Positions 128 to 29,368 of a stretch of 38,427 bases of DNA are shown here, piece after piece. A program made the translations under genes and the position numbers. How positions within the stretch are numbered: position 1 is the stretch's first letter; each line of letters opens with the position of its first letter. The DNA is from a virus: IMG/VR virus record IMGVR_UViG_3300050144_000056. One strand, written 5' to 3'. The notes beneath the pieces were generated by a model, which was not told where the DNA came from, did no database searches, and worked only from the letters and a program-made list of their open reading frames with translations.

Positions 128-569
128 TGGTTCGCTGGACTTCATACTTACCCCTAAGATATTTGCACTCTTCCTTAAACATTCGGAAGATATGAACATC
201 ACCATCAGGGTTTGCCTGCGCTAGTGTGCATTCTAGCGTAAAGCCCATTTTGGTGACAAGATTTATTGACTTCGCATTACTTGCCGCTATTGGTGCAGTA
301 ATACGTTTTACTTTTAACTGATTAAACGGGTAATCAAATATAAGATGCAAGAACCCTTTGGTTGCCCATAACCCTTCACCGGCAATGTGCTCAATGATGT
401 TTGCACCATTCCAATCCTCAAACAAAACGCCAGCAATTAGATTGCCATTAGCGTCTAGCTTTCCTATTGCGGTTCCTCGCCCTTTAGTCCACGTACCCCC
501 TGTTTTTGCAGATACCCACGGCCCGACTAGATCGGCGTCGAATGTGACTTCGTTCCCGTAGACTCTCAA
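117..569 (-). CDS. GNAT-like N-acetyltransferase (putative)
   Basis: 150-aa ORF. TTG start overlaps the upstream stop (TTGA). The segment KVKRITAPIAASNAKSINLVTKMGF...DVHIFRM resembles the GNAT acetyl-CoA-binding core. Motif recall only. Confidence 0.5.
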   Translation of the reverse strand: MRVYGNEVTFDADLVGPWVSAKTGGTWTKGRGTAIGKLDANGNLIAGVLFEDWNGANIIEHIAGEGLWATKGFLHLIFDYPFNQLKVKRITAPIAASNAKSINLVTKMGFTLECTLAQANPDGDVHIFRMFKEECKYLRGKYEVQRTSST

Positions 570-2089
570 AGTACGCTCTGCCCTTGTTGGTATAAGTAAT
601 CTATATTGGTGAACCGCACGTCTGAGCCGTTATTCTGGATTTTAAGACGTACCGCCGCAGAGTTACACACGGCCCCCACGGTCTGCCATGCTGTGATTCC
701 TGTTAGACCACCGCCCCAAACCATAGAACCCCATACCATTGAACCCCAAACCATACCGGTAGGAGGTGTGTAGCTCAGTGAGCCTTGAGGGTCTGACAGA
801 TTGAAGTCAGTATTCAGCCCATAAAGCACGGAGGGAGTGCCTGTACTTTGCAAATAAGGCCGGACCATCGTGAAGTATTTATTCCTCGCTTTGTTGCCAA
901 AGTAGTTAAAAGCGGGAAGCACATCAGCTTGAATAGGCACGGTCACATCTAGGTTACCAGTCCAAGCCTTTTTAATAGAGTTGCCATCCCCGTAATAGAG
1001 GCCAGTCGCAGCATTTAGCCAAACGGTAGCATTCCAGCCGGTTAGCTTAGTCCAAGCGCCTGTAATCGTGTTTTGTGCATATTGATAGTTTTGACCGTTA
1101 CCCATTGGCACGTTCAATATCAGCATGTTGTTATCGGGGTATTGGCACAACTGCCAGCCGTAGTTACCCGAGTACGAGTTAGCCGCTTGACTGACGGAGT
1201 TTTGGATTTTGTCGGTCAGGGCCACGCGCCTATCAACGGAAGCGGACAAAAGCCCCTTACCCAGAGGGAATACGCCTTCCATGCAGTTAATGGCTAAATC
1301 ACCGCCAAATTTGATACCGCACCGACGCCCCAAAGGTCTTCCAAGGGTAAACACTCCGACTAGGTTCCATGCAGATGCGCTAGAAGGGTCTGTGCCAGAG
1401 TAAACAGCCACCTCGCCGTTTGTACTGATAATAACAAAATGGTCATCCGAGCCGGAGCCTGCGTCAATAGTCCACGTATAGCATGCCTGAATTGAGCCGC
1501 CCAAGCGAAATATAGAGCCTAGGTCGATAGAAGAAGCCGCACCGCCTACGGAGTTCACCGGCAGATACCAAACCCGCATCGAGTTTGTCTCTACAAAGAA
1601 AAGACGGTTTTTAAATAGCTGCGCGTGTACTAGGAGCGTGGTCGTTACGCCAGTGATAGCGGGTGTAGACGCGCCGGTAATGGTTGTCCAAGTAGTGCCA
1701 TTCCATAGGCGGGGAGAATCCACCCCGTTTACCATGTAAAGGAAAGAACCGCCCGGAGTCGTAATCTGCGCATGTTGCCAGCGAGCGTTAGTCAATCCAG
1801 TCTGTACAGCCGCACCCACTGCGCCTGCCGTGGTGACGTTGTAGAACGATGTGCCAGCCGCTGCGAATAGCGTAGAAGCGCCAGTTGTAGGCAGATACTC
1901 AACCAATGTCTCTACCGTGCTAGGAAGGCCGGTAACGTGGCTTGCAGAGCCTTTGCGGATAGCTAGGTACGACGGATAGGGCCACCAGTTTTCTAAAACT
2001 ACGGCATCGCTTGGCCCCATGTCTGCGATTGAGTCCCTGTCGTTAAGGCCGGAAACTGGCGCGGGTATGGATGTTGCCGAGGCTTTCAT
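566..2089 (-). CDS. Virion/tail structural protein (507 aa), function unknown
   Basis: Long ORF, ATGA-coupled to the upstream gene, located in the post-head structural block. Confidence 0.6.
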   Translation of the reverse strand: MKASATSIPAPVSGLNDRDSIADMGPSDAVVLENWWPYPSYLAIRKGSASHVTGLPSTVETLVEYLPTTGASTLFAAAGTSFYNVTTAGAVGAAVQTGLTNARWQHAQITTPGGSFLYMVNGVDSPRLWNGTTWTTITGASTPAITGVTTTLLVHAQLFKNRLFFVETNSMRVWYLPVNSVGGAASSIDLGSIFRLGGSIQACYTWTIDAGSGSDDHFVIISTNGEVAVYSGTDPSSASAWNLVGVFTLGRPLGRRCGIKFGGDLAINCMEGVFPLGKGLLSASVDRRVALTDKIQNSVSQAANSYSGNYGWQLCQYPDNNMLILNVPMGNGQNYQYAQNTITGAWTKLTGWNATVWLNAATGLYYGDGNSIKKAWTGNLDVTVPIQADVLPAFNYFGNKARNKYFTMVRPYLQSTGTPSVLYGLNTDFNLSDPQGSLSYTPPTGMVWGSMVWGSMVWGGGLTGITAWQTVGAVCNSAAVRLKIQNNGSDVRFTNIDYLYQQGQSVL

Positions 2090-2349: not shown

Positions 2350-3243
2350 TTAGCCCACCCAGTTGCCATCAGGCAGATTCATTGTGGTTAGGAGTACGGA
2401 GCTACCAATAGGGGAGAGACTGAGCTTCGGATAGCTCTTGTCCTGCGATTTATTGTTTTCGAGCAGGCTTCTGAATTCTGCTAGGTCAAAAGAGGCATCC
2501 AGTCCCTTAGCCTGTTTCCACTGTACTTTGAGGCCAGTAATAAGCAAGCTGTCGGTGAAAATGAAAGTATCAGAGTCAGAATTGAACGTTGTCTGAGCCA
2601 CGCCGCCAGCAGAGTAAATCCATGCCTTAGAAATATACTCAAAACCAAAAACCAGTCCATTAGGCGGGGGGGGATTGATCGCATATGTATTGCCGACAAT
2701 GCGGAATCGCTCACGAGGGCCAGCGTAGACAATGCCGGATTTAAAGGACTGCCAATCCTGCGCCGATTGCGGCCCCATCAAAGGCCAGCGGTTAGTTCTA
2801 TCCCACTCCGTCTGCGGAATCTCTCTATCCCAATCGGAGGGAAGGTTGTATTGCACTTGAGAGAGTTGCAGGGTCACAGTGCCTGATGCTGTGGCAGGCA
2901 TGTTCATGGTTACCTGCGTGGCACTGTCCACAGAGGTAATCTGCGCGAATGGCTCAATACCTACGCCAGCCAATCCAAACTGAGTAGATAGGCCGGTTGT
3001 GTCTAGTCCAGTGACTACGTTAGAGCCTTGTACGGTTGTTCCCGTGCGGGAGTAAGCAACGGTCTGGAGGATGTATTCCTTGTTCAGCCGTTGCCACTCA
3101 AACTGCTTAATCAGGTCATTACCCAGCCGATACAACAATGCAGACATTTGACGTGTCTGCGGGTCAGTCGTTCCCACCACGAGGGAGGGGCGATTGATTG
3201 CGAGTTCATCGCATACTTGTTGTATCAGGCTAAGTAAATTCAT
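2350..3243 (-). CDS. Hypothetical virion protein (297 aa)
   Basis: ORF 2350..3291 trimmed to the ATG at 3243 (MNLLSLIQQ...), 2 nt after the upstream stop. Confidence 0.55.
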   Translation of the reverse strand: MNLLSLIQQVCDELAINRPSLVVGTTDPQTRQMSALLYRLGNDLIKQFEWQRLNKEYILQTVAYSRTGTTVQGSNVVTGLDTTGLSTQFGLAGVGIEPFAQITSVDSATQVTMNMPATASGTVTLQLSQVQYNLPSDWDREIPQTEWDRTNRWPLMGPQSAQDWQSFKSGIVYAGPRERFRIVGNTYAINPPPPNGLVFGFEYISKAWIYSAGGVAQTTFNSDSDTFIFTDSLLITGLKVQWKQAKGLDASFDLAEFRSLLENNKSQDKSYPKLSLSPIGSSVLLTTMNLPDGNWVG

Positions 3244-3245
3244 CG

Positions 3246-3599
3246 CTATTCCATCAGTTTGTTTTTCAAGGCATAACCCATAAGAGGCCAAATTTTCTGC
3301 TTGGCATTCTCACGGGCAATTTTTCGCCCAATTTCAGCATCAAAGTTTTCAGGCGATGCGCATGCGCTTTCACCAGTCACTGTAAAGCCGTTTTTTAATA
3401 CGATTACGCATATTGTCAAAAGCTTCAACTCGGGAACTTGTGGGCTTCCTTCTGTGGCTTGTTCTGCGGTAAACCAATATTCGGCCTTGATGTTTTGCTC
3501 AATGTCATCGGGTGTGACTCTTGGGGCTGTCAGGCCTTTGTGTTGAATCTCTTGTTCAATGGCGCTGTCATCGGTGCGGGGGGATTGAATGCGAATCAT
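3246..3599 (-). CDS. Gp49-like protein (N4 gp49 / Sf6 gp66 family)
   Basis: C-terminal LKNGFTVTGESACASPENFDAEIGRKIARENAKQKIWPLMGY matches the family signature as I recall it. Confidence 0.7.
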   Translation of the reverse strand: MIRIQSPRTDDSAIEQEIQHKGLTAPRVTPDDIEQNIKAEYWFTAEQATEGSPQVPELKLLTICVIVLKNGFTVTGESACASPENFDAEIGRKIARENAKQKIWPLMGYALKNKLME

Positions 3600-4202: not shown

Positions 4203-4571
4203 TTATGCCGACAAAATAGCGAACCAGTTAGCAGACGAAGAGCCCACAAACAAAGCTCGGCCACCAGCAGCAACGGAGAAACCGCCAGTAGTTGCGGTCA
4301 GTGCGTTAATCTGCGCACCAGTGCCGGGATAAACCAGCAAAGCGTTAGCGCCAGAATTAACAACCACCACCTGAGAACCTTGCTCGGGCAACATCAAACG
4401 CACGCCGGTATTCAGCGCAGTTGTAGTCACACGGTTGATGATTGCAGAGAGTTGCAAAGCATCAGCGTTGGTTGTACCGGTAGCGGTCAGAGTATCTGCA
4501 ACATCGCCGCAGATTTGTACGGCAGCAGATGCAGAATTGCCTGCACCCATAAGACGTGAGGGGATAGCCAT
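4203..4571 (-). CDS. Small Ala/Thr/Gly-rich head-associated protein (122 aa)
   Basis: ORF with ATG start, second gene after the capsid gene, bracketed by hairpins. Confidence 0.5.
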   Translation of the reverse strand: MAIPSRLMGAGNSASAAVQICGDVADTLTATGTTNADALQLSAIINRVTTTALNTGVRLMLPEQGSQVVVVNSGANALLVYPGTGAQINALTATTGGFSVAAGGRALFVGSSSANWFAILSA

Positions 4572-4952: not shown

Positions 4953-5945
4953 TTAATCAGCCAAAACGCCTTGGAACTGAGCGCCAGAGCAGGTCAAGTT
5001 ACCGGCCCAGCCCATCAAACGGACGATAGCGTCTTGGTTGACAGACTGACGGTCGCCGCCGATTGGCACGAAGTTACGGTCGCGGTGTGGGCGCAAGAAC
5101 AAGAACTTCGAGTTGATGAAGTACATGCGGTTAGTGGGGATAGATCCACCGATACCGCCATCCAGATAAACGTCACAGTTCAAGCCAGCACCCATGTACT
5201 TGATCGAGGTGAAGCCAGCCGCAGCAGAGGACTCGGAAGTCACGCGCTGGATAGCTTGCAAGCTCTCAAGGAACAAGCGGTAGTAGTTGTTGTCAGCCAC
5301 GATCATGTCAGGGCGGTCAGTACCACGCACCAACTGCACAGCCACACGGTTCATGTAAGACTGGATGTTGGCAGAGGTAGCAGCAGCGCCGCCGTCAGTG
5401 GTAGCGTCGAACGCCACGTTACGCCAGAAGCTCCATGTTGCACGGTTAATGCCGCCATAAGTGCCAGAGGTAGGCGAAGTGGAGATAGCAGCAGCCAAAC
5501 CGGTGATGTCCTTACCAGAGTTGCCAGTACCGTCAGAGTACACGCCAGCGCTGATCTGGTTCATCAACTGAGCTTCGGCAACTTGCACACGGCCTTCGAG
5601 CATATCAATGATTTGCTCTTTGCCAGCATTCTGGAGTTGCTCCAAGCCAGAGATAGACACAGCAGCAGCGTACTGCTTCAGGTCGAACTGAGCCGCAGAG
5701 ATTGGGCTGTTCGGGGTGATGTCGATTGTGTCGTAACCGGAATACGAAGATGCGTTCAGGGTAGAGGCATCGTTGTACATCAGTTCCTGCAAAATCACGT
5801 TACCACCGGAGAACGGCTTGACGTTGCCGCGCTCTTTCAGTTTCGCCAGCAGTGCGTTGTTACGGGTTACGGAGTCCGCAAGGGTTCCGCTACGAGATTG
5901 GATTGTGGTCGAAATAATATCCGACAAGTTAGCAAAAGTTGCCAT
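4953..5945 (-). CDS. Major capsid protein
   Basis: 330 aa, directly after a scaffold-like gene. Size, position and sequence character fit HK97-fold capsids of P22/epsilon15/BPP-1-type podophages. Confidence 0.8.
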   Translation of the reverse strand: MATFANLSDIISTTIQSRSGTLADSVTRNNALLAKLKERGNVKPFSGGNVILQELMYNDASTLNASSYSGYDTIDITPNSPISAAQFDLKQYAAAVSISGLEQLQNAGKEQIIDMLEGRVQVAEAQLMNQISAGVYSDGTGNSGKDITGLAAAISTSPTSGTYGGINRATWSFWRNVAFDATTDGGAAATSANIQSYMNRVAVQLVRGTDRPDMIVADNNYYRLFLESLQAIQRVTSESSAAAGFTSIKYMGAGLNCDVYLDGGIGGSIPTNRMYFINSKFLFLRPHRDRNFVPIGGDRQSVNQDAIVRLMGWAGNLTCSGAQFQGVLAD

Positions 5946-7309: not shown

Positions 7310-8820
7310 AGCAGCATCAAGATTTCTATATCTTCCTCATCGTCTGCGATTCTGCGCAATTCTAAAGCAATGAGTATCTGTTTAGCTACATATAGCTGTC
7401 GCTCTGCGTTTTGCGCAATTTGTGTGTAGTCAATCTGCGGATATTCGCGTTTAACTGCCTCTTTTACTTCTTCTGGCGCTATCTCTGGCTGCTCTTGCAC
7501 CAGTTCGATGACTTCCTCTAGCTTTGGCTTCTTTTTGTGGAGCTTTTCCCACTGTTTGTGCCAATACCCGTCATGGGTATCCTGCATCAACTGGCCTAGC
7601 ATTGCCGAGCCGTTGATAACAGCGCCAGAGCCTACCAATGCGCCGGATGTGGCGTGTACAACTGGAGTGCCTGAGCGTGCGGCAGTTCCTGAGATTGTTG
7701 CACCTTGCCCTGCCAATATGCCGCTTGTTGCATGCGGTACGTTGTGAACCGCAGTTCCGGCAATAACGGATCCTTGGCCGGTCAGTACACCCGATGATGT
7801 GAAAGCACGGAATCGCGCCGCAGTGCCGGATAGGGTAGGCCCCTGCCCAGTTAGCGTGCCGGATGTGTCGTGCGTTGTAAAGCCTGCGCCTCTAGCTGCG
7901 CTACCGACAATGGTTGAGCCTTGGCCTACCAATGCACCACTAGACGACATAGCCCTGAATCGCGTAGCTGTGCCAGCGATAGAGCCAATCTGACCTGTCA
8001 GTGCGCCGCTAGTACCATGAACCGCGATGTGTGCCGCAGTTCCCGCTACGGTAGATCCTTGACCTGTTAGCGCTCCCGATGTGGCGTGAGTTGTCGCACC
8101 TCCAGAAGCCTGCTTTACCTCAAGCGCCGCATAAATCGAGTTGAGATATATCGTGTCCGTAGACGATGGTGCGAGTACGTCATCCCATGTGTAGCTCGCC
8201 GTGGTGCTGCCCGTGCGGACAGATACAGAGCCACCATAGACACCCGCTAGGTTTGCAGTGTCCAGACGTGTGACGCCTGAGCCGTCTGTCTGATAGATGT
8301 TTCCTGAGCCTGCGACTGTCGCAGTGATAGCAGCCAGCACATCAGACGTAGCAGCCGGTGCGCCCGACAAGGTTGGCGTCCATGCGCCATCAGTCGGGCC
8401 GTTATTAGCCGAGCCAGATACGCCTAGCGTTGTGCTTGCGTTCTGATAGACGATAGGCAGCAGCGTGAGTGCCGCGAATCCGCCCGGTGGAGCCGATGCC
8501 GCCGTAGCCGTGAAAGTAAACGTGCCGCCTGTCGTGAAGTAGGCGGTGTGAAACCAAATACGCTGAGAGTATTGGTCAGCCTGTGACGGTGTAACTACCC
8601 GCTCAGTCCAAGTCGCTGCCGCGCCACTATTGGTGATCGTCAGTGGCGATACGTCAGACACATCCCGCATGGTCTTGGTAATCAAGACAACAAGGCTGTT
8701 GTCTGGAATGACCATTGACCCGCTAGTTACGGTCGTGCCATTAGACGATACGCGGGTGCCTACCGTTCTAGATAGGGCAGGCGTTCCCGAAGGCTGATTA
8801 AATAGTAGTAACAGCGACAT
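7306..8820 (-). CDS. Virion-module protein with seven tandem ~22-26-aa repeats and an acidic helical C-terminus
   Basis: 504 aa. Repeat consensus is H-A-T-S-G-A-L-T-G-Q-G-S-x-I-A-G-T-A-A (aa 245-411). The C-terminus ends DDEEDIEILMLL. Confidence 0.6.
   Translation of the reverse strand: MSLLLLFNQPSGTPALSRTVGTRVSSNGTTVTSGSMVIPDNSLVVLITKTMRDVSDVSPLTITNSGAAATWTERVVTPSQADQYSQRIWFHTAYFTTGGTFTFTATAASAPPGGFAALTLLPIVYQNASTTLGVSGSANNGPTDGAWTPTLSGAPAATSDVLAAITATVAGSGNIYQTDGSGVTRLDTANLAGVYGGSVSVRTGSTTASYTWDDVLAPSSTDTIYLNSIYAALEVKQASGGATTHATSGALTGQGSTVAGTAAHIAVHGTSGALTGQIGSIAGTATRFRAMSSSGALVGQGSTIVGSAARGAGFTTHDTSGTLTGQGPTLSGTAARFRAFTSSGVLTGQGSVIAGTAVHNVPHATSGILAGQGATISGTAARSGTPVVHATSGALVGSGAVINGSAMLGQLMQDTHDGYWHKQWEKLHKKKPKLEEVIELVQEQPEIAPEEVKEAVKREYPQIDYTQIAQNAERQLYVAKQILIALELRRIADDEEDIEILMLL
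7588..8088 (-). repeat. Seven in-frame tandem coding repeats (~66-78 nt each)
   Basis: Units start at aa 245, 268, 292, 317, 341, 363 and 389 of the 504-aa ORF. Confidence 0.8.
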
Positions 8821-8842
8821 TCATTGTTCTTTCCGTCGCTAG

Positions 8843-10306
8843 TTAGTTCGGCAAATAGATGTATTGAATCGCGGTTATGGTGAAACTCGGAGTAGTGCCG
8901 CCAATAGTCCAGACTACGCGCCATGTACGGGGAATAACCATGCTGCAAGTCGCGGTGGTTCCCGTAGTGGCTACGCCTGCGGTAGTTGCCACGCCGGGGT
9001 AGATCATGATGCCGTACTGGCCTGTAGCAGTCAGTGAGGCCGTGGTCGCACCGGGTACGTCATACCAAGTAGTACCTGCATCGGTAGAACCCTGAACCTT
9101 GATAACGCATGTCGGGCTAGTTCCTGTCACCGCGCCCATGTTCACCACGATCTGCACACCCTTGTTGCCGACGTTGGTGATGGTTGCGCCGTTACCTGTG
9201 GCAGTCTTTGCACCAGTGTCACCAGTGGTAAGGGCTGTAGACATACCCCGTTGACGGTCCCACGAAGTACCGTTGAACGTCAGAGCAGCCGCGCCAATCT
9301 GGGTTACTGTCGGGTTAGCCAGAGCATCGGCAGAAGCCGCCGCAGTTGGATAGCCTGTTACTGTCGCAGTGGTCTGCAAGTTGGCAGCGGTGTTGCTTGC
9401 CACTAGGTTGACCGTTGGCGTCCATGTCTCCGTGCTGATACGGGTAAACGCTTGGATAGAACCGCCTGTAATGGTCGATGCAATGCGCAGACGCACGAAG
9501 TTACAGCGAATGGCAAACGAATAAATGATCTGCGACGCCGTGGCAGTGATGGCCGCAGTGATAGGAACACCTGTCACCAATGCAGCGTTAAACACAGGCA
9601 AGGCAATCCAGTTCACGTTATCGTTTGACTGCTCGAAGATAAACGTACCCGCTGTGCCTGTAGACACCACCTGCACCGATGCCGCACGATAGCCGGACAC
9701 GTTCAATCCAGCAGTGCCGGAGGTAGGTTGCAGGATGTTGTTGACGGTAGCGGTCTGTGCAGATGCACCTGTCAGCACCAAAGGCAACTCAGTGACCGGC
9801 ATGATGCCTGAGCTGTCCGAATCGCCTAAGTCGCCATAAGCGGTATTCAGGTTGAATGTCGTGGTAGTAGACGCGCCGGTATTGGTTGCGCTAACCCGCA
9901 CATAGTTACCGTTTAGCGTAAACGAACGGCCAAAACCTACACCTGCGGACACGTAGAACACAATATCAGGTACTGCGCGTGTGCCTGCCAAGTCAATAAA
10001 CTGGCTAACGGTCAGCGTCATCGGCTGATCGCTAGTCATCAGCAGGGATATGCTTGGCTGATCTAGCGCGGTCTCGATGACACCGGTAAACGTAGCAGCG
10101 GCTGCAAGCTGTACAGTGCTAGAGTTGTTTGTCGAGAATCGAAAGATTGTGGCGTTGTTGCTGGTGGGCAGTGGGTTTGTAGCGTCCACATCCACGGCAG
10201 AGCCATCCGAACCCCACGAGGGTTTAACTCGTTGGTATTGAATGCCCCCGATGTCGTCCGTGGCTACCGCAGAGCCAGTGCCGGGTAGGGTTACGTTATC
10301 GGCCAT
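8843..10306 (-). CDS. Thr/Ala/Gly-rich virion protein (487 aa), function unknown
   Basis: Long ORF with ATG start, located between the portal and scaffold genes. Confidence 0.55.
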   Translation of the reverse strand: MADNVTLPGTGSAVATDDIGGIQYQRVKPSWGSDGSAVDVDATNPLPTSNNATIFRFSTNNSSTVQLAAAATFTGVIETALDQPSISLLMTSDQPMTLTVSQFIDLAGTRAVPDIVFYVSAGVGFGRSFTLNGNYVRVSATNTGASTTTTFNLNTAYGDLGDSDSSGIMPVTELPLVLTGASAQTATVNNILQPTSGTAGLNVSGYRAASVQVVSTGTAGTFIFEQSNDNVNWIALPVFNAALVTGVPITAAITATASQIIYSFAIRCNFVRLRIASTITGGSIQAFTRISTETWTPTVNLVASNTAANLQTTATVTGYPTAAASADALANPTVTQIGAAALTFNGTSWDRQRGMSTALTTGDTGAKTATGNGATITNVGNKGVQIVVNMGAVTGTSPTCVIKVQGSTDAGTTWYDVPGATTASLTATGQYGIMIYPGVATTAGVATTGTTATCSMVIPRTWRVVWTIGGTTPSFTITAIQYIYLPN

Positions 10307-10307
10307 G

Positions 10308-10943
10308 TTATGCGCTCAGTGCGGTGTAGGTCAGAGAGGAGCAGGACACGGTATCGCCGTCTACCCACATATCGGGCCAATGACGATTACCTTTTGATGT
10401 GTTTGCTTTTTCAGGTATTACTTGCATATTTGCCTCGCAATGAAGTCCGCATACGGTCTTGCTAACCAACGGAACGATGTGATCTACGTGCCACTTAAAA
10501 CCAAACATTTGTGAGCGCAGCCTTGCAAGGTGATACGCCTCACGCATAAAAAACTCATTTGCCCAAGCTGGTGTTGCTTGTTTTGCGACGCTGCGCTTTT
10601 TAGATTCGCGCTCAGCACAAACATGCAGGTTTTTCTTCACCCAATTTGCAGTCAATTCTAACGCTCGCTCAGGATTTGCAGCTCGCCACGATGCAGCATT
10701 CTTTGCATGGCGCTCTTTATTCGCCTTTGCCCAAGCTATTGCGCGCTCGCTATTCTTCTTTATGTTTTCTCTTGCGTACTGACGATGACGCTCACGCAAA
10801 ATATCTCTACGCTCAGCGTAATATGCAGCCGCGTTTTCTTTGGAGCATTGAACGCAGCATCTTGTGCTTTGCTTACGAAGACCGCCCAAATCTGGGTGTT
10901 TTTCGCACACAGATCCGATGTAAGTAGCGGCTTGCTTTCTCAT
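10308..10943 (-). CDS. HNH endonuclease (homing-endonuclease-like)
   Basis: HNH core is WHVDHIVPL...CGLHCEANMQVIPEKANTSKGNRHW, with an N-terminal Cys cluster. The ATG at 10943 overlaps the upstream stop (TAATG). The last 16 aa duplicate the upstream gene's C-terminus. Confidence 0.85.
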   Translation of the reverse strand: MRKQAATYIGSVCEKHPDLGGLRKQSTRCCVQCSKENAAAYYAERRDILRERHRQYARENIKKNSERAIAWAKANKERHAKNAASWRAANPERALELTANWVKKNLHVCAERESKKRSVAKQATPAWANEFFMREAYHLARLRSQMFGFKWHVDHIVPLVSKTVCGLHCEANMQVIPEKANTSKGNRHWPDMWVDGDTVSCSSLTYTALSA

Positions 10944-11332
10944 TACGCAGACAAAGCCGTGTAAGTTAGTGAGCTGCAAGAAACCGTATCTCCTGCGGCA
11001 ACAGTTAGTCCGTTAGTCATCACGATGTCTGACGCAGATGCCGCCACAGCGCAGTGGACGCACACAGTACCACCCGAGGTTTGCAGTGTTGCCGTGGCTA
11101 CCGGAGAAGCGTTGCCGGTTGCATTGGTGTCGCTGGTGATCGCGTTAGCCGTTGCCGTGCCTGCCGATGCTGCACCGAATGGGGTTGCACTCATCACCAG
11201 AGTGGCTACAGCCGTGCCCGGAGCGCTTACCGTGCCAGTCAAGCGGAAAACTAGCCGTGGCGATGCGCCTAGCTGTCCAGTCACGTAATCGGTTGCGCCG
11301 TTGCGAATTGCGGTTGTGTGAGTTACTGCCAT
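10943..11332 (-). CDS. Small Ala/Thr-rich virion-module protein (129 aa)
   Basis: ATG start; ends GDTVSCSSLTYTALSA-TAA. Confidence 0.55.
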   Translation of the reverse strand: MAVTHTTAIRNGATDYVTGQLGASPRLVFRLTGTVSAPGTAVATLVMSATPFGAASAGTATANAITSDTNATGNASPVATATLQTSGGTVCVHCAVAASASDIVMTNGLTVAAGDTVSCSSLTYTALSA

Positions 11333-11334
11333 GA

Positions 11335-11493
11335 TTATTCCCCTTTGACTTCGGTTTGTGCTTGAAAGAATGCGTCTCGCTGCTTTTCATCAACGAAGCC
11401 GACTAGCTCTACCGTTTCAGTCTCTCCGGTAGCTGCTCGCTTGATTTCAATGGTCATTTTGACCTCGCCCACTACACCAATTAAATCAGCCAT
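11335..11493 (-). CDS. Hypothetical small protein (52 aa)
   Basis: Hand-translated as MADLIGVVGEVKMTIEIKR...TEVKGE. GAGGA RBS present. It fills the gap between the portal stop and the next gene. Confidence 0.45.
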   Translation of the reverse strand: MADLIGVVGEVKMTIEIKRAATGETETVELVGFVDEKQRDAFFQAQTEVKGE

Positions 11494-11495
11494 GA

Positions 11496-13688
11496 TTAGT
11501 CCTCGCTCACTTCAATTACACCAATAGCGCGGCCATCAGGCCCACGCTCTACCATCCTTCGCTTAGGCCGGTTCATTTGCTGCACAGCGTCTGCCAGCAT
11601 GGTCACTGCCTGAGTGATAGCCTGCGATTGTGCGTCAACTCCTGCCACTGCTTGAGAGGCCATCGCCTTCACTTCCTCACCCACTGCGCCTAGTTCTTCC
11701 TTGCCATCAATAGATATTTGAGCGGTTGGCTTCTCTGCGGCCTGCGCGTTCATTGCGGCAATCTGTAGCTTTGTCTCGCTGTCAAGCTGTGCGCGGTACA
11801 TTGCGCGCTCTGTCTCGGCTTGTTGTTTGATCTGCTCCAGCTCTAGGGCGTGCTGCATCTTCGCGGCTTCGATTGCTTGCGCATTCTGGGCTTTGAATTG
11901 CTCAGTCTGTGCCATTGCGGATTGTTTAGCCTGCTCCAATTGCATAGCGGCCTGAGCCTTGATCTGCTCGGGGTCTGGTGGAGGCGGTGCTTCTGGCTTA
12001 GGCTCATTCATCTTTTGAATGGTGTTTTCCAGCACGTTCTCCAATTGACGCCCACCCTTGAAGGTACGGACAACGAATTGCAGAACTTCGCCCACCAGAG
12101 CGCCCATCTCAGGGGCTGCTTGCACCATGGGCACTGCGTCTCTCAGGACTGCGCCGAATGCTTGCATGAACTCCGTGCGGCTTTGCTTTTCGCCGATTTC
12201 GTCCATTTCCACCAGAGAATCAGCGGCTACTTCGATGCGGAAAGAACGGGCGGGTTCTTGTTTAATCAGTGCAATGGCTTGCTCGGCATAGGGCGCGTCA
12301 TCCGTCCCCAGAATGCCGGACATTTGAATCAGGCTCTCAGGGCTGTACAGGTCGCACATCATTTGGGCTTTGATGCGTAGCAACTCAGAGCAGAATTGCG
12401 CCACTTCGGTCTGCATGCGCTTAAGACGCAAAGAGGCGTATTGGCTCTTGATCTGCTGTGCTGTCGCGGTCTCTGAGGCCATAGACGCGCCTCGGATGAT
12501 GTCTGACAAGCCGGTGACTTCGTAGACCACCTGTTTAGCCTGCTCTCGGGCTGTGTAGCAATGGGTTAGGGCCATTACCACTTGGTCAAGCGGCAGGAAG
12601 TCTACAGCCCCTTTGAGTCCGCCCTTCTCACCGAATGCCGCCCACGAATCCACGCCAATGAGGGTATTGTTCACGCCCTCATTCAGCATTCGCTCAATAG
12701 CTGGTTGGCTTGCGTCGTACACGCCTACAACCTTCAACGCCTCAGTCAGCATACCTATACGCTGCGTCAGCATGTCGATTTCTTCGGCTTGGTCTTGATA
12801 GAGAGTGTAATCAGGGACAGGGACTAGCGTGTCTGTGGTTTGGGTAGCGAAAAGCGGTTTGGGGCAGGGCCAGAAGTTGTCCAACCCATACGGGTCTTCC
12901 TTGCTGTCCAGCATCTTGGTATGCCCCTCGGCAATCCAATAGACGCGCTTATCGTTTTTGCTCCAGATTTCCCAAACAATGGCCTTTTTGAGGCTTTCCT
13001 GCTCGGCTTGGCTTGCATCTGTTTTGCTCAGGTCATCCAATCCGATCGGCTCATGGGCAAGGGGAACCTCTTTAAAGTCCTCGCCAAAGCGCTTCACGCC
13101 GTCTGCACGGCTCATGTAAATGCGACGGGCTACCCATACCACCTCATCCCATGTACGGGCGGGAGAGCATCGAAAATCTTTCCAGAATACGTAATCAGTG
13201 GGAGTGCATTCGTAGGTCATGTCGGGCTGCTCGCCCATAACATCCTCTACAGGTTCCTCGATTACCTCTGCTTCCGCCACTTCCTTCGTTTCAAATCGAA
13301 CCCACGCTGTTCCACGTCCCGGCAGTAGCCGATCAAGTACCGCATGTTTATTCGTATTGTCGAAGTCACCATAGTGGTCGATCTCGTATTGGAGTGCGCG
13401 CTCAAGGATAACCGAAGCTGTGCGGCCTACGGGGTCTTTATCTTTCCAACGGCGCTCTACTTGTGCGCGTGGGGTGCGGCCATACAAGGCGGGGAGCATC
13501 GTTTGGATGTTTGCCCACAAGATGTTGTAACGCTTGCCGTTATCGCTCCAGCCTTGACGCTCATCACGATAGCGCTTGACGATCTTGTCGCCGCGCTTCT
13601 GCCACTTCTTGTCCTCATCCTGAGCGAGTTTTAGCTCTTGCGTCCAGCGGCGATGTTCGTCTACCGGATTGATTTCGTCTTCTGTCAT
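11496..13688 (-). CDS. Portal protein
   Basis: 730 aa, in the terminase-proximal position. The long Ala/Gln-rich helical C-terminal region resembles P22-type portal barrels. Confidence 0.75.
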   Translation of the reverse strand: MTEDEINPVDEHRRWTQELKLAQDEDKKWQKRGDKIVKRYRDERQGWSDNGKRYNILWANIQTMLPALYGRTPRAQVERRWKDKDPVGRTASVILERALQYEIDHYGDFDNTNKHAVLDRLLPGRGTAWVRFETKEVAEAEVIEEPVEDVMGEQPDMTYECTPTDYVFWKDFRCSPARTWDEVVWVARRIYMSRADGVKRFGEDFKEVPLAHEPIGLDDLSKTDASQAEQESLKKAIVWEIWSKNDKRVYWIAEGHTKMLDSKEDPYGLDNFWPCPKPLFATQTTDTLVPVPDYTLYQDQAEEIDMLTQRIGMLTEALKVVGVYDASQPAIERMLNEGVNNTLIGVDSWAAFGEKGGLKGAVDFLPLDQVVMALTHCYTAREQAKQVVYEVTGLSDIIRGASMASETATAQQIKSQYASLRLKRMQTEVAQFCSELLRIKAQMMCDLYSPESLIQMSGILGTDDAPYAEQAIALIKQEPARSFRIEVAADSLVEMDEIGEKQSRTEFMQAFGAVLRDAVPMVQAAPEMGALVGEVLQFVVRTFKGGRQLENVLENTIQKMNEPKPEAPPPPDPEQIKAQAAMQLEQAKQSAMAQTEQFKAQNAQAIEAAKMQHALELEQIKQQAETERAMYRAQLDSETKLQIAAMNAQAAEKPTAQISIDGKEELGAVGEEVKAMASQAVAGVDAQSQAITQAVTMLADAVQQMNRPKRRMVERGPDGRAIGVIEVSED

Positions 13689-14023
13689 GGGGTAATCGCG
13701 GCAGATACCGCGCCATTAGCAGCAAAGGGAATGCCGTTTGCATAGGTTACAGCGGCATTAGTAGAGATGCACAGCCCACTAGCAGACAAGGGAAGGCCAT
13801 CGGACCATTGCACATCAGCGGGTAGCCCTGCCGTAGCGTCAAAGTAGCGCACCCGTCCTGCGTCTGTCAGCAATAGACCGTTGCAATACTCATCGCCACC
13901 AGCAGCAACAGCGCGGTTCAATCCTGCGGTGGATGTGAGAATGCCGCCTAGGAATGCGTCAGTAGCTACGGGTGCGGCTGTGCCTAGCTGCACTTGACCG
14001 TTGATGACGGATAGAACGCTCAT
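13685..14023 (-). CDS. Hypothetical protein (112 aa) between terL and portal
   Basis: ATGA coupling at both ends. Confidence 0.5.
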   Translation of the reverse strand: MSVLSVINGQVQLGTAAPVATDAFLGGILTSTAGLNRAVAAGGDEYCNGLLLTDAGRVRYFDATAGLPADVQWSDGLPLSASGLCISTNAAVTYANGIPFAANGAVSAAITP

Positions 14024-14196
14024 CGCTCACCCTTCATAAATGATTCAAGGGTAACGGGAGCTTGTCCGTTTTCCTGCTTGGCAAGCTGATAAGCCCGATA
14101 TTCAGGGGTTACCGCCATTGCCTTTTGTGCCTGTCCAGCCATGCCGCCTAGCTCGGGCTTTGCAGTTCTCAGGGCTTTGATGATTGCTTCTAGCAT
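14020..14196 (-). CDS. Hypothetical small protein (58 aa)
   Basis: Hand-translated as MLEAIIKALRTAKPELGG.... TAATG overlap with the terL stop and ATGA overlap with the next gene. Confidence 0.45.
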   Translation of the reverse strand: MLEAIIKALRTAKPELGGMAGQAQKAMAVTPEYRAYQLAKQENGQAPVTLESFMKGER

Positions 14197-15548
14197 TAGA
14201 ACCTCTCGCGCTTTGTAGGGGTTTCTGCCCAGAGTTTATCTAGGGATTGGGTGATTATGCGCCCATTTACGCCTTTTATGGCAAATTCTGCGGGTTTTTC
14301 GGGTTCTTTTGCGACAACTTGCGACATTACTTGGCACCCATAGGCGAAGCCATCGCTAGGGTGAGACGCCCAATTGTGGTTAGGCTCTCGGCTAAATACG
14401 CCCGATTCCTCGTTGTAGACAAACTCCCATGCCATTAGTCCGTCTATGCCTTCCTCGCACTTGGTCTTATGGAAAGCGCACTTCTTGATTGTGGTTCGCG
14501 CAGCCTCGATCTGGTCTGATTTGCGAGACTGGGGGACTATGGCCAGCTTATCGTGCCCAAAAGCCGCAATGAATCGCTCTATCGCCGTGTGCTTGCTTTG
14601 GAATGTCTTGGCCCGTGCGTCAGACGGTAGCCATATCTTCCCTAGGCAGTTGCGCCCACCAATATCGGAGAGCTTGTCTCTCAGCTCGGGTATCCAGTCA
14701 TCAGCATCCATGCCGTTACCCTGCGTGTAGTCCACAAGGTTAAACCCGCCCGGCACTGATTGCCAAAACCACCACGCCGTTGTATCCCTAAAACCAAGGT
14801 CAGACGATATGACAATCTTCGCCCCGTCTGGGTCGTACTCTACGCCATCATGGATTCGTCCTTCTCTCTCGGCTTGTCCCACCCACTTAGCCAGAATAGC
14901 GCCTTGGCTTGAGCCATACGCCCCGTTCCATACGTGCTCGGCTTTATCCTCATCGGCTTCAAAGTCTGCCAGCATATCCGCATATAGGGGCGTATTCTTA
15001 AACCAAGGATTGTCGTACCAGTTAATCATGATGCAGATAGCGTCCTCTCGCTTGTCTTTGCGAAAGAACTTATCTACTGCATCTGTCTTGTAGCGTGGAT
15101 TCCAGCTAAACCACAGTTCAGAGCCGGGTTTACGGATAGTAGGCCGTAGCAGGTCTAGCGAGTGCTGGCTAAGGGTCTGGGCCTCCTCTACCCATGCAAT
15201 ATCAAAGCCTTCTAGGGACTTGATGTTTGCAGCATTGAAAGACTGCAAGCCCTTGAAGATGATTAGGCTATCGTGCGGTCCTCGTATTTCTGATTCCAGA
15301 ATGGTGAACTGCGAATCTAGGCCCATGCCTATGATTTTGTCCACAATAAGCTGCTTAACAGATTCCTTGATACTGATCTGCACCTCTCGCAGACACACGA
15401 TGCGCTTACCCGTTAGGGCTTGGCATACGATCTGCTCTGCGAAAAAATGCGACTTGGCCCCACCTCGCCCACCGTATGCGCCCTTATAGCGCTTTGGCTG
15501 GAGTAATGGGGCTAACTTAGCTGGAACTTTAAGACGGAGGGTTGACAA
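14196..15548 (-). CDS. terL: Terminase large subunit
   Basis: Walker A is GAYGGRGGAKSH; also LREVQ and WVEEAQ. PBSX/Terminase_3-like N-terminus. TTG start overlaps terS. Confidence 0.9.
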   Translation of the reverse strand: MSTLRLKVPAKLAPLLQPKRYKGAYGGRGGAKSHFFAEQIVCQALTGKRIVCLREVQISIKESVKQLIVDKIIGMGLDSQFTILESEIRGPHDSLIIFKGLQSFNAANIKSLEGFDIAWVEEAQTLSQHSLDLLRPTIRKPGSELWFSWNPRYKTDAVDKFFRKDKREDAICIMINWYDNPWFKNTPLYADMLADFEADEDKAEHVWNGAYGSSQGAILAKWVGQAEREGRIHDGVEYDPDGAKIVISSDLGFRDTTAWWFWQSVPGGFNLVDYTQGNGMDADDWIPELRDKLSDIGGRNCLGKIWLPSDARAKTFQSKHTAIERFIAAFGHDKLAIVPQSRKSDQIEAARTTIKKCAFHKTKCEEGIDGLMAWEFVYNEESGVFSREPNHNWASHPSDGFAYGCQVMSQVVAKEPEKPAEFAIKGVNGRIITQSLDKLWAETPTKRERF

Positions 15549-28087: not shown

Positions 28088-28218
28088 CAGAGCAACAAAT
28101 CATTCAACTGGCATATGCCGAAGATGGGACATGTGAGCGCGTAGCTATCGAACTTGAGGCCATTGGCCTGACAAAATCGCAGGTTAAAGCAGTAATGATG
28201 AAGGAGATTGTGGGATGA
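28084..28218 (+). CDS. Hypothetical small protein (44 aa)
   Basis: Hand-translated as MTEQQIIQLAYAEDGTCERVAIELEAIGLTKSQVKAVMMKEIVG; ATGA coupling at both ends. Confidence 0.4.
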   Translation: MTEQQIIQLAYAEDGTCERVAIELEAIGLTKSQVKAVMMKEIVG

Positions 28219-28892
28219 TTGTTTACAAAGCTATTAACGCTGTGCAGGCTGAATTGGCTGTCAGTGGCATTACAAAAGATCGCACTAATACTCAGGGCAG
28301 CGGCTACAAGTTTCGCGGCATTGATGACGTTTACAACGCCATTGCGCCATTGTTGGCAAAGCATGGATTGTGTATCCTGCCTCGGGTGCTGTCTCGCACG
28401 GTTGATGAGCGCACCAGCAAAAACGGCGGGGCACTGTTCTATGTGACCGTCGATTCAGAGTTTGATTTTGTGAGCGCAGAGGATGGCTCAAAACACACGA
28501 TAAAGACCTTTGGCGAGGCTATGGACAGCGGCGACAAGGCCACTAACAAAGCCATGAGCGCGGCCTATAAATACGCCTGTTTTCAGGCATTCAGCATTCC
28601 CACTGAATCAGACAACGATGCAGACGCGCACACTCACGAAGTGAAGCAAAAAGAAGTGAAGCGCCAAGGCGGTTTATCGGGCATTGGAGACGACTTGTCC
28701 GAGGACTGGAAAACCTACCTACAAGACACGGCTAAACTCGTTGTAGACCTTGTGGCACAGGGTAAATTCGATGAGGCCAATTTCGAGCGCTACAAAGAAC
28801 CGCTAGACGATGTACAAGAGCTGTACCTTGAGCGTTTCCTCGATTCCAAAACCCGCAGCGCAATCCGCAAACACAACCAGACGAAAGGCTAA
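28215..28892 (+). CDS. erf: ERF-family single-strand annealing recombinase
   Basis: YKFRGIDDVYNAIAPLLAKHG and GEAMDSGDKATNKAMSAAYKYACFQAFSIPT match ERF family signatures. Confidence 0.85.
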   Translation: MIVYKAINAVQAELAVSGITKDRTNTQGSGYKFRGIDDVYNAIAPLLAKHGLCILPRVLSRTVDERTSKNGGALFYVTVDSEFDFVSAEDGSKHTIKTFGEAMDSGDKATNKAMSAAYKYACFQAFSIPTESDNDADAHTHEVKQKEVKRQGGLSGIGDDLSEDWKTYLQDTAKLVVDLVAQGKFDEANFERYKEPLDDVQELYLERFLDSKTRSAIRKHNQTKG

Positions 28893-28894
28893 TC

Positions 28895-29368
28895 ATGGCA
28901 TATACGCCAAAAAGCAAACCAAAAAAAGGTGCGCACCTGTATAAGCATGGATTGGTTGGACATCCTTTGTATGGTCGATGGCGAAGAATGATACAAAGAT
29001 GCACCGACCCAAATGCAAAAGACTATAAAAGCTACGGTGCACGTGGAATTACGGTGTGCAATGAGTGGATGTCCTTTGAGGTTTTTTTGGCTCAAATGGG
29101 GGAGCCAAAAGCAAAACAAGAATTAGACAGAATCGACAACTCAAAAGGATATTGTGCGGAAAATTGCAGGTGGGTAGATAGGTCAACAAACATGAAAAAC
29201 ACAAGAAATTCCGTAATCATTGAGTACAACGGAGAATCTAAAAACTTAGGCGATTGGGCAAAAATTGTCGGGGTTGCAAGAGATACGCTTAAATATAGGC
29301 TAAAGAATTGGCCTATTGAAAAAGCAATGAGTAAATGTAAATTCAAAACCAATGGAGAGCCAGCATGA
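28895..29368 (+). CDS. HNH-type homing-endonuclease-like protein with a C-terminal HTH
   Basis: ELDRIDNSKGYCAENCRWV is a motif of phage HNH-like proteins. The C-terminus reads NLGDWAKIVGVARDTLKYRLKN. AT-rich. Confidence 0.6.
   Translation: MAYTPKSKPKKGAHLYKHGLVGHPLYGRWRRMIQRCTDPNAKDYKSYGARGITVCNEWMSFEVFLAQMGEPKAKQELDRIDNSKGYCAENCRWVDRSTNMKNTRNSVIIEYNGESKNLGDWAKIVGVARDTLKYRLKNWPIEKAMSKCKFKTNGEPA

Follow-up and report, generated by a model that had tools for sequence, protein, structure and literature searches.

Homing endonucleases are usually thought to enter coding sequence only inside introns or inteins and otherwise to sit between genes. Other mobile elements target the ends of genes: e14 and phage 21 in icd, and the integrators of tRNA genes, enter the 3' end of the target gene and bring a diverged replacement end. 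The gene stays intact and its native end remains as a leftover, as in the cassette described here. Their integration depends on a site-specific recombinase together with an attachment site, not on double-strand break and repair.

Duplicated gene ends that accompany an endonuclease are known from fungal mitochondria. In Glomus, atp6, atp9, cox2 and nad3 carry mobile endonuclease ORFs (mORFs) together with a C-terminal duplication of the gene (Beaudet et al., PMC3630166). At the DNA level, inserted and native copies share 64-81% identity and the native copy shares 91-98% with the insert-free relative; the changes are largely synonymous (PMC3630166). The first mORF case, atp6 of Allomyces macrogynus, goes back to Paquin, Laforest and Lang 1994, as cited in PMC3630166 and PMC3045599. 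For phages, reviews and surveys describe free-standing nucleases that lie between genes or split genes (PMC2988022, PMC3045599, PMC10448857, PMC12724721). In T4, the stop of nrdA and the start of mobE share the overlap UAAUGA, taken as a sign of translational coupling (PMC2988022). A full-text literature search of limited coverage returned no nuclease cassette accompanied by a duplicated gene end, either from phages or with an HNH-type enzyme.

Here, we analyse such a cassette in a viral DNA of 38,427 nt (IMG/VR record IMGVR_UViG_3300050144_000056; this whole stretch is called the window). It is apparently a phage, HNH-type variant of the fungal mitochondrial strategy, not a new principle, and apparently undescribed in phages. 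The original prediction had regarded the arrangement as not a described homing strategy, which does not stand, since the same strategy is described for fungal mitochondrial mobile ORFs (PMC3630166). As in the mORFs, an endonuclease ORF interrupts a gene near its 3' end, the gene body continues in frame into a foreign C-terminal segment, and the native C-terminus persists downstream, where it resembles insert-free relatives more closely; in the mORFs, too, the differences are largely synonymous. However, mORF enzymes are of the LAGLIDADG or GIY-YIG type and belong to organelle genomes, whereas the present enzyme is HNH-type and found in tailed phages. Moreover, a mORF is often in phase with the upstream gene, whereas here the nuclease ORF begins at the host stop and runs on into the leftover behind it. 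Given the HNH-type motif and the phage hosts, the element would work like the mitochondrial elements without being one of them.

The locus also resembles the free-standing homing endonucleases of T4-like phages (mobE and the seg genes; 'intronless homing') in that the nuclease is a stand-alone ORF with no intron or intein (PMC2988022, PMC2790892). Shared as well are presence or absence in close relatives, a start-stop overlap like that of mobE/nrdA and the lack of a promoter of its own. Unlike the nuclease in the window, those of T4 occupy intergenic positions or divide a gene into two functional parts, as in nrdA of Aeh1 (PMC3045599), and no duplicate end is supplied.

Layout of the interrupted gene and its empty site

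All genes discussed around the site are on the minus strand in the ORF list of the window. According to that list and PHROG matches, the terminase gene (14196..15548) and the portal gene (11496..13688, then a 52-aa ORF) precede the host gene, a 129-aa ORF at 11332..10943 with its last 16 codons supplied by the cassette. These codons, at 10993..10946 and directly before TAA (10945..10943), specify GDTVSCSSLTYTALSA. The nuclease ORF (211 aa, 10943..10308, TAA at 10310..10308) is in a different frame, and its ATG (10943..10941) overlaps the host stop as TAATG; this overlap, already pointed out in the original prediction, is seen at 10945..10941. Residues 1-192 (10368..10943) are the nuclease proper, as delimited by PHROG matches, 398 homologues, invariant residues and an AlphaFold2 model. 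Comparison of family C-termini places a three-codon junction, WVD (10359..10367), between the nuclease frame and the displaced native 3' end of the host gene, and the WPDM-ending nuclease of the window has no stop codon of its own. The displaced end, with G/C-type codons and TAA (10308..10358), is read as the tail of the nuclease ORF and was recognised by comparison with two nuclease-less relatives, L002 and L003. Downstream follow a 487-aa gene (8843..10306, ATG at 10306), a 504-aa ORF and, farther along, the major head protein gene (4953..5945). The 487-aa and 504-aa genes had zero matches in Pfam and NCBIfam. Since the host ORF stops before the nuclease ORF, the nuclease gene is outside any intron or intein. 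The cassette contains no promoter-like site and no intron-like RNA, its terminator-like sites are no more frequent than in shuffled sequence, and no Rfam family matches 10000..11600 at E up to 1.

The sequence GDTVSCSSLTYTALSA plus TAA is encoded twice on the minus strand, at 10993..10946 and at 10358..10311 (48 nt each). The upstream copy reads GGA GAT ACG GTT TCT TGC AGC TCA CTA ACT TAC ACG GCT TTG TCT GCG TAA and the downstream copy GGC GAT ACC GTG TCC TGC TCC TCT CTG ACC TAC ACC GCA CTG AGC GCA TAA, followed by C and the next ATG. The copies are 635 nt apart and thus the host gene and the tail of the nuclease ORF are read in different frames. Comparison of the copies bears out the initial description of identical peptides that differ at 16 nt in 13 codons, all synonymously; both serine family switches, AGC/TCC and TCT/AGC, are present. 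In 200,000 trials of 16 random substitutions the peptide was never preserved. The longest identical run between the copies is 5 nt. Random encodings of the peptide are expected to differ at 15.5 ± 2.8 positions and 16 differences are observed, hence the two copies diverge as far as the peptide permits. At third codon positions, GC amounts to 0.44 for the upstream copy and 0.42 for the nuclease body; the downstream copy has 0.75, the host-gene body 0.55 and the next gene 0.59. This agrees with the earlier assignment of an A/T-type upstream copy that resembles the insert and a G/C-type downstream copy that resembles the flanks. Overall GC falls from about 0.56-0.62 outside to about 0.48 across the insert. 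The fused 211-aa protein is encoded on 17 JGI contigs from several samples, and in three of these independent contigs an 811-nt segment that spans both junctions is identical; the arrangement is thus not an assembly error.

An IMG/VR scan with the 129-aa protein yielded 259 relatives, and no second copy of the tail was found in the best 80 of them. L002 and L003 (the latter a 38,416-nt contig) encode proteins 99% identical to the host protein and lack the nuclease, so that the nuclease gene is present or absent at the same locus among close relatives. In blastn, L003 is 92% identical to window 15332..10959 and 85% identical to 10358..8789, and its positions 4340-4374 align to both copies. A base-level alignment shows that L003 equals the window through ...ACTGTTGCCGCAGGAGATAC and then continues with the G/C-type end; divergence from the empty-site allele starts directly after GGAGATAC (10993..10986), and the L003-type empty-site junction contains ACTGTTGCCGCAGGAGATACCGTGTCATGCTCCTCTCTGACC. 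The single gene end of L002 and L003 differs from the downstream copy at 2 nt. From the upstream copy, the L003 gene end differs at 15 nt (manual count on the alignment), all within the last 40 nt. An empty site rebuilt from the upstream flank of the window and the downstream copy is 92-100% identical to L003 in every 50-nt bin. The L003 alignment and the spacing of the copies define an insert of 635 nt (10985..10351), with boundaries ambiguous within the repeated GGMGATAC. The insert comprises the last codons in foreign spelling, the stop and the nuclease ORF. Its replacement 3' end, A/T-type codons plus TAA, occupies 10943..10985 according to the L003 alignment and third-position GC, and the flanks of window and L003 show no co-conversion tract beyond 43 nt. 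The start context of the 487-aa gene, TAA C ATG, is identical in the window and in the empty-site allele.

These comparisons uphold the core of the original prediction. In L002 and L003 the end of the gene is G/C-type and contiguous with the gene body, the empty site in L003 and the 635-nt insert match an insertion of nuclease and replacement 3' end near the end of the host gene, and a downstream copy only 2 nt from the single end of L002 and L003 is what a displaced original 3' end in the nuclease ORF tail should look like. L003 could in principle be a deletion derivative that only appears never to have been invaded. However, the farther nuclease-less phages L021, L027 and L028 also have the G/C-type end, with 2-4 nt different. 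An A/T-type end without nuclease, the expected donor, was not found; the nearest natural allele differs at 12 nt.

The nuclease family at this and other gene ends

The nuclease matches phrog_1035 ('endonuclease VII', E 1.7e-11) and phrog_26577 (E 2e-22), and both matches stop at residue 188-193. Its N-terminal segment is rich in Cys and His, helical repeats follow, and the C-terminal part has an HVDH...N...N motif and finishes with WPDM. Among 25 homologues, the residues of HVDH(152-155)...N172...N181..K184.N186 are invariant or nearly so, with D154, H155, N172 and N181 invariant. The HVDH...N stretch aligns weakly to the HNH motif of Cas9 (E 0.12), the only match to a solved structure; a Foldseek search of the AlphaFold2 model (pLDDT 78) against the PDB gave no match. 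The PHROG families that match bear the labels 'endonuclease VII' and 'endonuclease', and homologues in phage records are annotated as HNH or endonuclease VII. No curated HNH model in Pfam or NCBIfam matches the protein and hence the designation HNH-type rests on the motif, the PHROG labels and the depositors' annotations. For residues about 31-122 the model shows six or seven helices, each of 15 residues, in which the motif W..(A/K)N(P/K)E(K/R) recurs (pLDDT >90); they presumably form the DNA-binding part, and the number of repeats differs among family members. Homologues of the nuclease occur at many unrelated positions. Of the best 120 among 398 homologues, most end ...NRHWPDMP or ...PDMW plus 0 to about 20 unrelated residues, and within these 120 all or part of the 16-residue tail occurs only in members inserted at the same host gene. 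The tail is therefore not a trait of the nuclease family: among the best 120 homologues the family ends ...WPDMP or ...WPDMW. The last 24 residues of the window protein are predicted to be disordered, and the tail has pLDDT <50 in the AlphaFold2 model.

In other phages, this gene end is also where the three closest nuclease homologues are located, and the nuclease lineage is therefore tied to the site; their leftovers comprise 18, 13, 4 or a decayed 9 codons. In L168 (P0122; nuclease 62% identical to that of the window), the nuclease gene overlaps a gene of the host family as TAATG and has its own stop. Directly after it, TAAATG leads into a mini-ORF, MRNNKLIIAAGDTVSCSSLTYTALSA, the stop of which overlaps the next ATG (TAATG). 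The three overlaps of L168 lie at 215..222 (TAATG), 803..811 (TAAATG) and 885..892 (TAATG), and the mini-ORF has 26 codons. In L082 and L087 (P0124; 57%), PDMP is followed by VSCSSLTYTALSA, a fused leftover of 13 codons with saturated synonymous differences from the upstream copy. L086 and L088, of the same lineage, have only PDMP plus ALSA, which indicates a deletion of nine codons. L083-L085 (P0123; 57%) end ...PDGVAFCALSA with the decayed leftover GVAFCALSA. The leftover shrinks and decays, suggesting that the enzyme does not need it. Read from these C-termini, the fusion found in the window belongs to a series whose stages make decay of the scar visible: own stop and mini-ORF, then a 16-codon fusion, then 13 and 4 codons. 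In the nuclease of L082, about 35 residues are missing from the N-terminus, where the Cys/His-rich segment would be.

The last 20 nt of the upstream copy, ACTTACACGGCTTTGTCTGC, are common to the upstream copies of the window and L082. They are absent from 84 other loci and occur in IMG/VR only in two cassette-bearing contigs; this confinement to cassettes fits a carried end that travels with the nuclease gene. The final 20 nt of the carried end are identical (window 10946..10969, L082 1740..1759) in phages with nuclease proteins only about 57-61% identical. This identity points either to recent exchange between cassettes or to some constraint, on DNA or RNA, that acts just ahead of the nuclease start.

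More than 576 family members were matched in IMG/VR, and 130 members with usable flanks, from IMG/VR and metagenomes, were screened for protein-level similarity between the sequences before and after the nuclease ORF, with mismatched loci as controls. In L121, L122 and L217 the host gene encodes a 335-aa metallophosphoesterase and the duplicate comprises 36 codons; in L097 the host gene encodes 134 aa and 40 codons are duplicated. Empty sites are available for both. The single gene end of the nuclease-less L254-L267 shares 95-109 of 111 nt with the leftover of L121 and only 73-77 of 111 with the upstream copy; in the nuclease-less L333-L339, the leftover of L097 matches at 86-89 of 123 nt and the upstream copy at 72-74 of 123. 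Homology between L097 and a nuclease-less relative breaks immediately before the upstream copy. The carried ends of L121 and L097 also change some residues and so create hybrid proteins, like the hybrid genes of the mitochondrial mORFs. L097 has the overlap ATGA twice (2813..2818 and 3352..3357), and its displaced end is a 41-codon mini-ORF. By sequence comparison, one nuclease family uses gene-end replacement repeatedly.

A further locus, L102 (about 2930..2985 and 3476..3530), has a short ORF, MSLKPAFEGELLWLLP*, before the nuclease and a downstream gene that starts MSLDPAFQGELWLLGW... with its ATG overlapping the end of the nuclease ORF. It may be a mirror image with a duplicated 5' end of the downstream gene, at a score of 57 that is borderline against the controls. 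Flank similarities that scored below about 57 at other loci were rejected as low-complexity noise at the level of the mismatched-locus controls. The window contains a second, unrelated HNH gene on the plus strand (28895..29368; phrog_3377, E 4.5e-49), 2 nt after the gene of an Erf-like single-strand annealing protein (28215..28892, plus strand). No gene-end duplicate flanks this second gene (score 29, equal to the control mean).

Proposed mechanism and rival explanations

We consider it very probable that a free-standing HNH-type homing endonuclease gene lies inside the 3' end of the conserved 129-aa phage gene. With the same high confidence in the explanation as a whole, the mobile unit would consist of roughly the last 14 codons in foreign synonymous spelling, the stop and the nuclease ORF that starts on this stop (TAATG). 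The enzyme would cut the uninterrupted allele near GGAGATAC|CGTG, a site guessed from the junction, and repair of the break from a cassette-bearing genome would copy the unit in. With the missing codons provided by the cassette, the host protein would stay the same. The genome that bears the nuclease would be immune because neither junction retains the full empty-site sequence, and the copies would be unable to recombine and delete the element because identical runs are at most 5 nt long. We infer endonuclease activity, cleavage, homing, removal of the cleavage site and protection from recombination by analogy with described homing systems. If so, a phage nuclease family enters a conserved gene end directly and pays with a spare gene end, and the junction region of the L003-type allele is the predicted target site of an uncharacterised nuclease family.

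In the lineage of the window, the nuclease would have lost its own stop, so that it reads into the native end and keeps the original stop/start context of the downstream gene. Terminating ribosomes are probably handed to the downstream gene through chained stop/start overlaps, and chains of this kind occur in the window, L168 and L097. We propose that the fusion is tolerated or favoured because read-through into the native end restores the TAA C ATG of the 487-aa gene. The leftover of L121 has no start codon, hence this read-through or relay scheme is not universal.

A more general reading is put forward tentatively: gene-end replacement would be a general route, free of introns and inteins, by which one HNH-type family enters phage coding sequence, with selection for maximal DNA difference and with the displaced end kept open, fused or as a mini-ORF, to pass ribosomes on. 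Alternatively, the replacement end might be passive, the gene end of a distant donor dragged in with divergence that has no adaptive role in immunity or stability, which we regard as rather unlikely. Co-conversion of flanking markers is standard in homing (PMC2790892), and natural orthologues that share all 16 residues are on average 11.3 nt apart, at most 22 nt, with 11% of pairs at 16 or more. The 'recoded' end of the original prediction thus stands as synonymous divergence and needs no special process. However, all five duplicate pairs reach the divergence expected of random encodings of one peptide: 16, 17, 17, 22 and 24 differences are observed and 15.5, 13.5, 15.5, 22.9 and 23.1 expected, with longest identical runs of 5-6 nt. 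The three pairs at the 129-aa gene may share cassette ancestry and are thus not fully independent. This synonymous saturation lies above the typical natural pair and fits a survival filter against similar repeats. Together with the orthologue mean, it suggests that cassettes with similar repeats may have been lost.

The remaining explanations depart further from a mobile cassette. That the 16-residue tail is a functional part of the nuclease, for example a tether to a binding partner of the host C-terminus, would account for a tail that is in frame, identical to an invariant motif of the host family and present in its fused form on 17 contigs. We regard it as improbable: members of the nuclease family stop short of the tail, close relatives inserted at this site retain 13 residues, 4 residues, a decayed remnant or a mini-ORF of its own, the tail is predicted to be disordered, and it is only 2 nt from the native end of a relative, as expected of a recent leftover. 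Direct repeats flank the insert, as they would if the gene end had been duplicated in tandem and had diverged in place before a nuclease landed between the copies. Yet the flanks are 92-100% identical to L003 while the upstream copy differs at 15 of the last 40 nt, the divergence would be confined to 43 nt and wholly synonymous, and the same 20-nt stretch of the upstream copy recurs in the cassette of another phage, which leaves this history very improbable. Packaging helpers occur beside terminase genes, and the HNH-type protein, whose gene follows those of the terminase and portal within the head and packaging module, might be such a domesticated phage function and not mobile. Its absence from L003 (38,416 nt, flanks 92% identical), the homologues at many unrelated positions and a GC content lower than the surroundings make this equally far-fetched.

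If the more general reading of gene-end replacement is true, such cassettes would be a hidden source of hybrid C-termini, and possibly of hybrid N-termini (L102), in phage proteins. A nuclease ORF between two synonymously saturated copies of a gene end would serve as a search signature for phage genomes, and odd C-terminal tails on phage nucleases, or small ORFs behind them, may be displaced gene ends.

The host gene

For the host protein, 2,893 homologues were counted; most share about 80% identity with it, and the C-terminus is nearly invariant. Such strong conservation is unusual for a small phage protein. The conservation of the 129-aa protein may be the reason why a homing nuclease is drawn to its gene. 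The protein had zero matches in Pfam, PHROG and NCBIfam, its AlphaFold2 model is unusable (pLDDT 41), and a profile search returned no meaningful solved structure. From its place between the portal and major head genes, our guess is that it is a virion gene.

A megablast search with the 4.9-kb stretch around the site found nothing in phage records. The only phage record with a homologue of the host gene is Sphingopyxis phage VSN-002 (L001, MZ127829.1), where it is at another genome position, carries no nuclease and ends with the G/C-type sequence. In VSN-002, the homologue comes after coat and tail-accessory genes and not after the portal gene. Directly after it lies a 488-aa glycine-rich ORF (L001 4413..5879) that is unannotated in GenBank.
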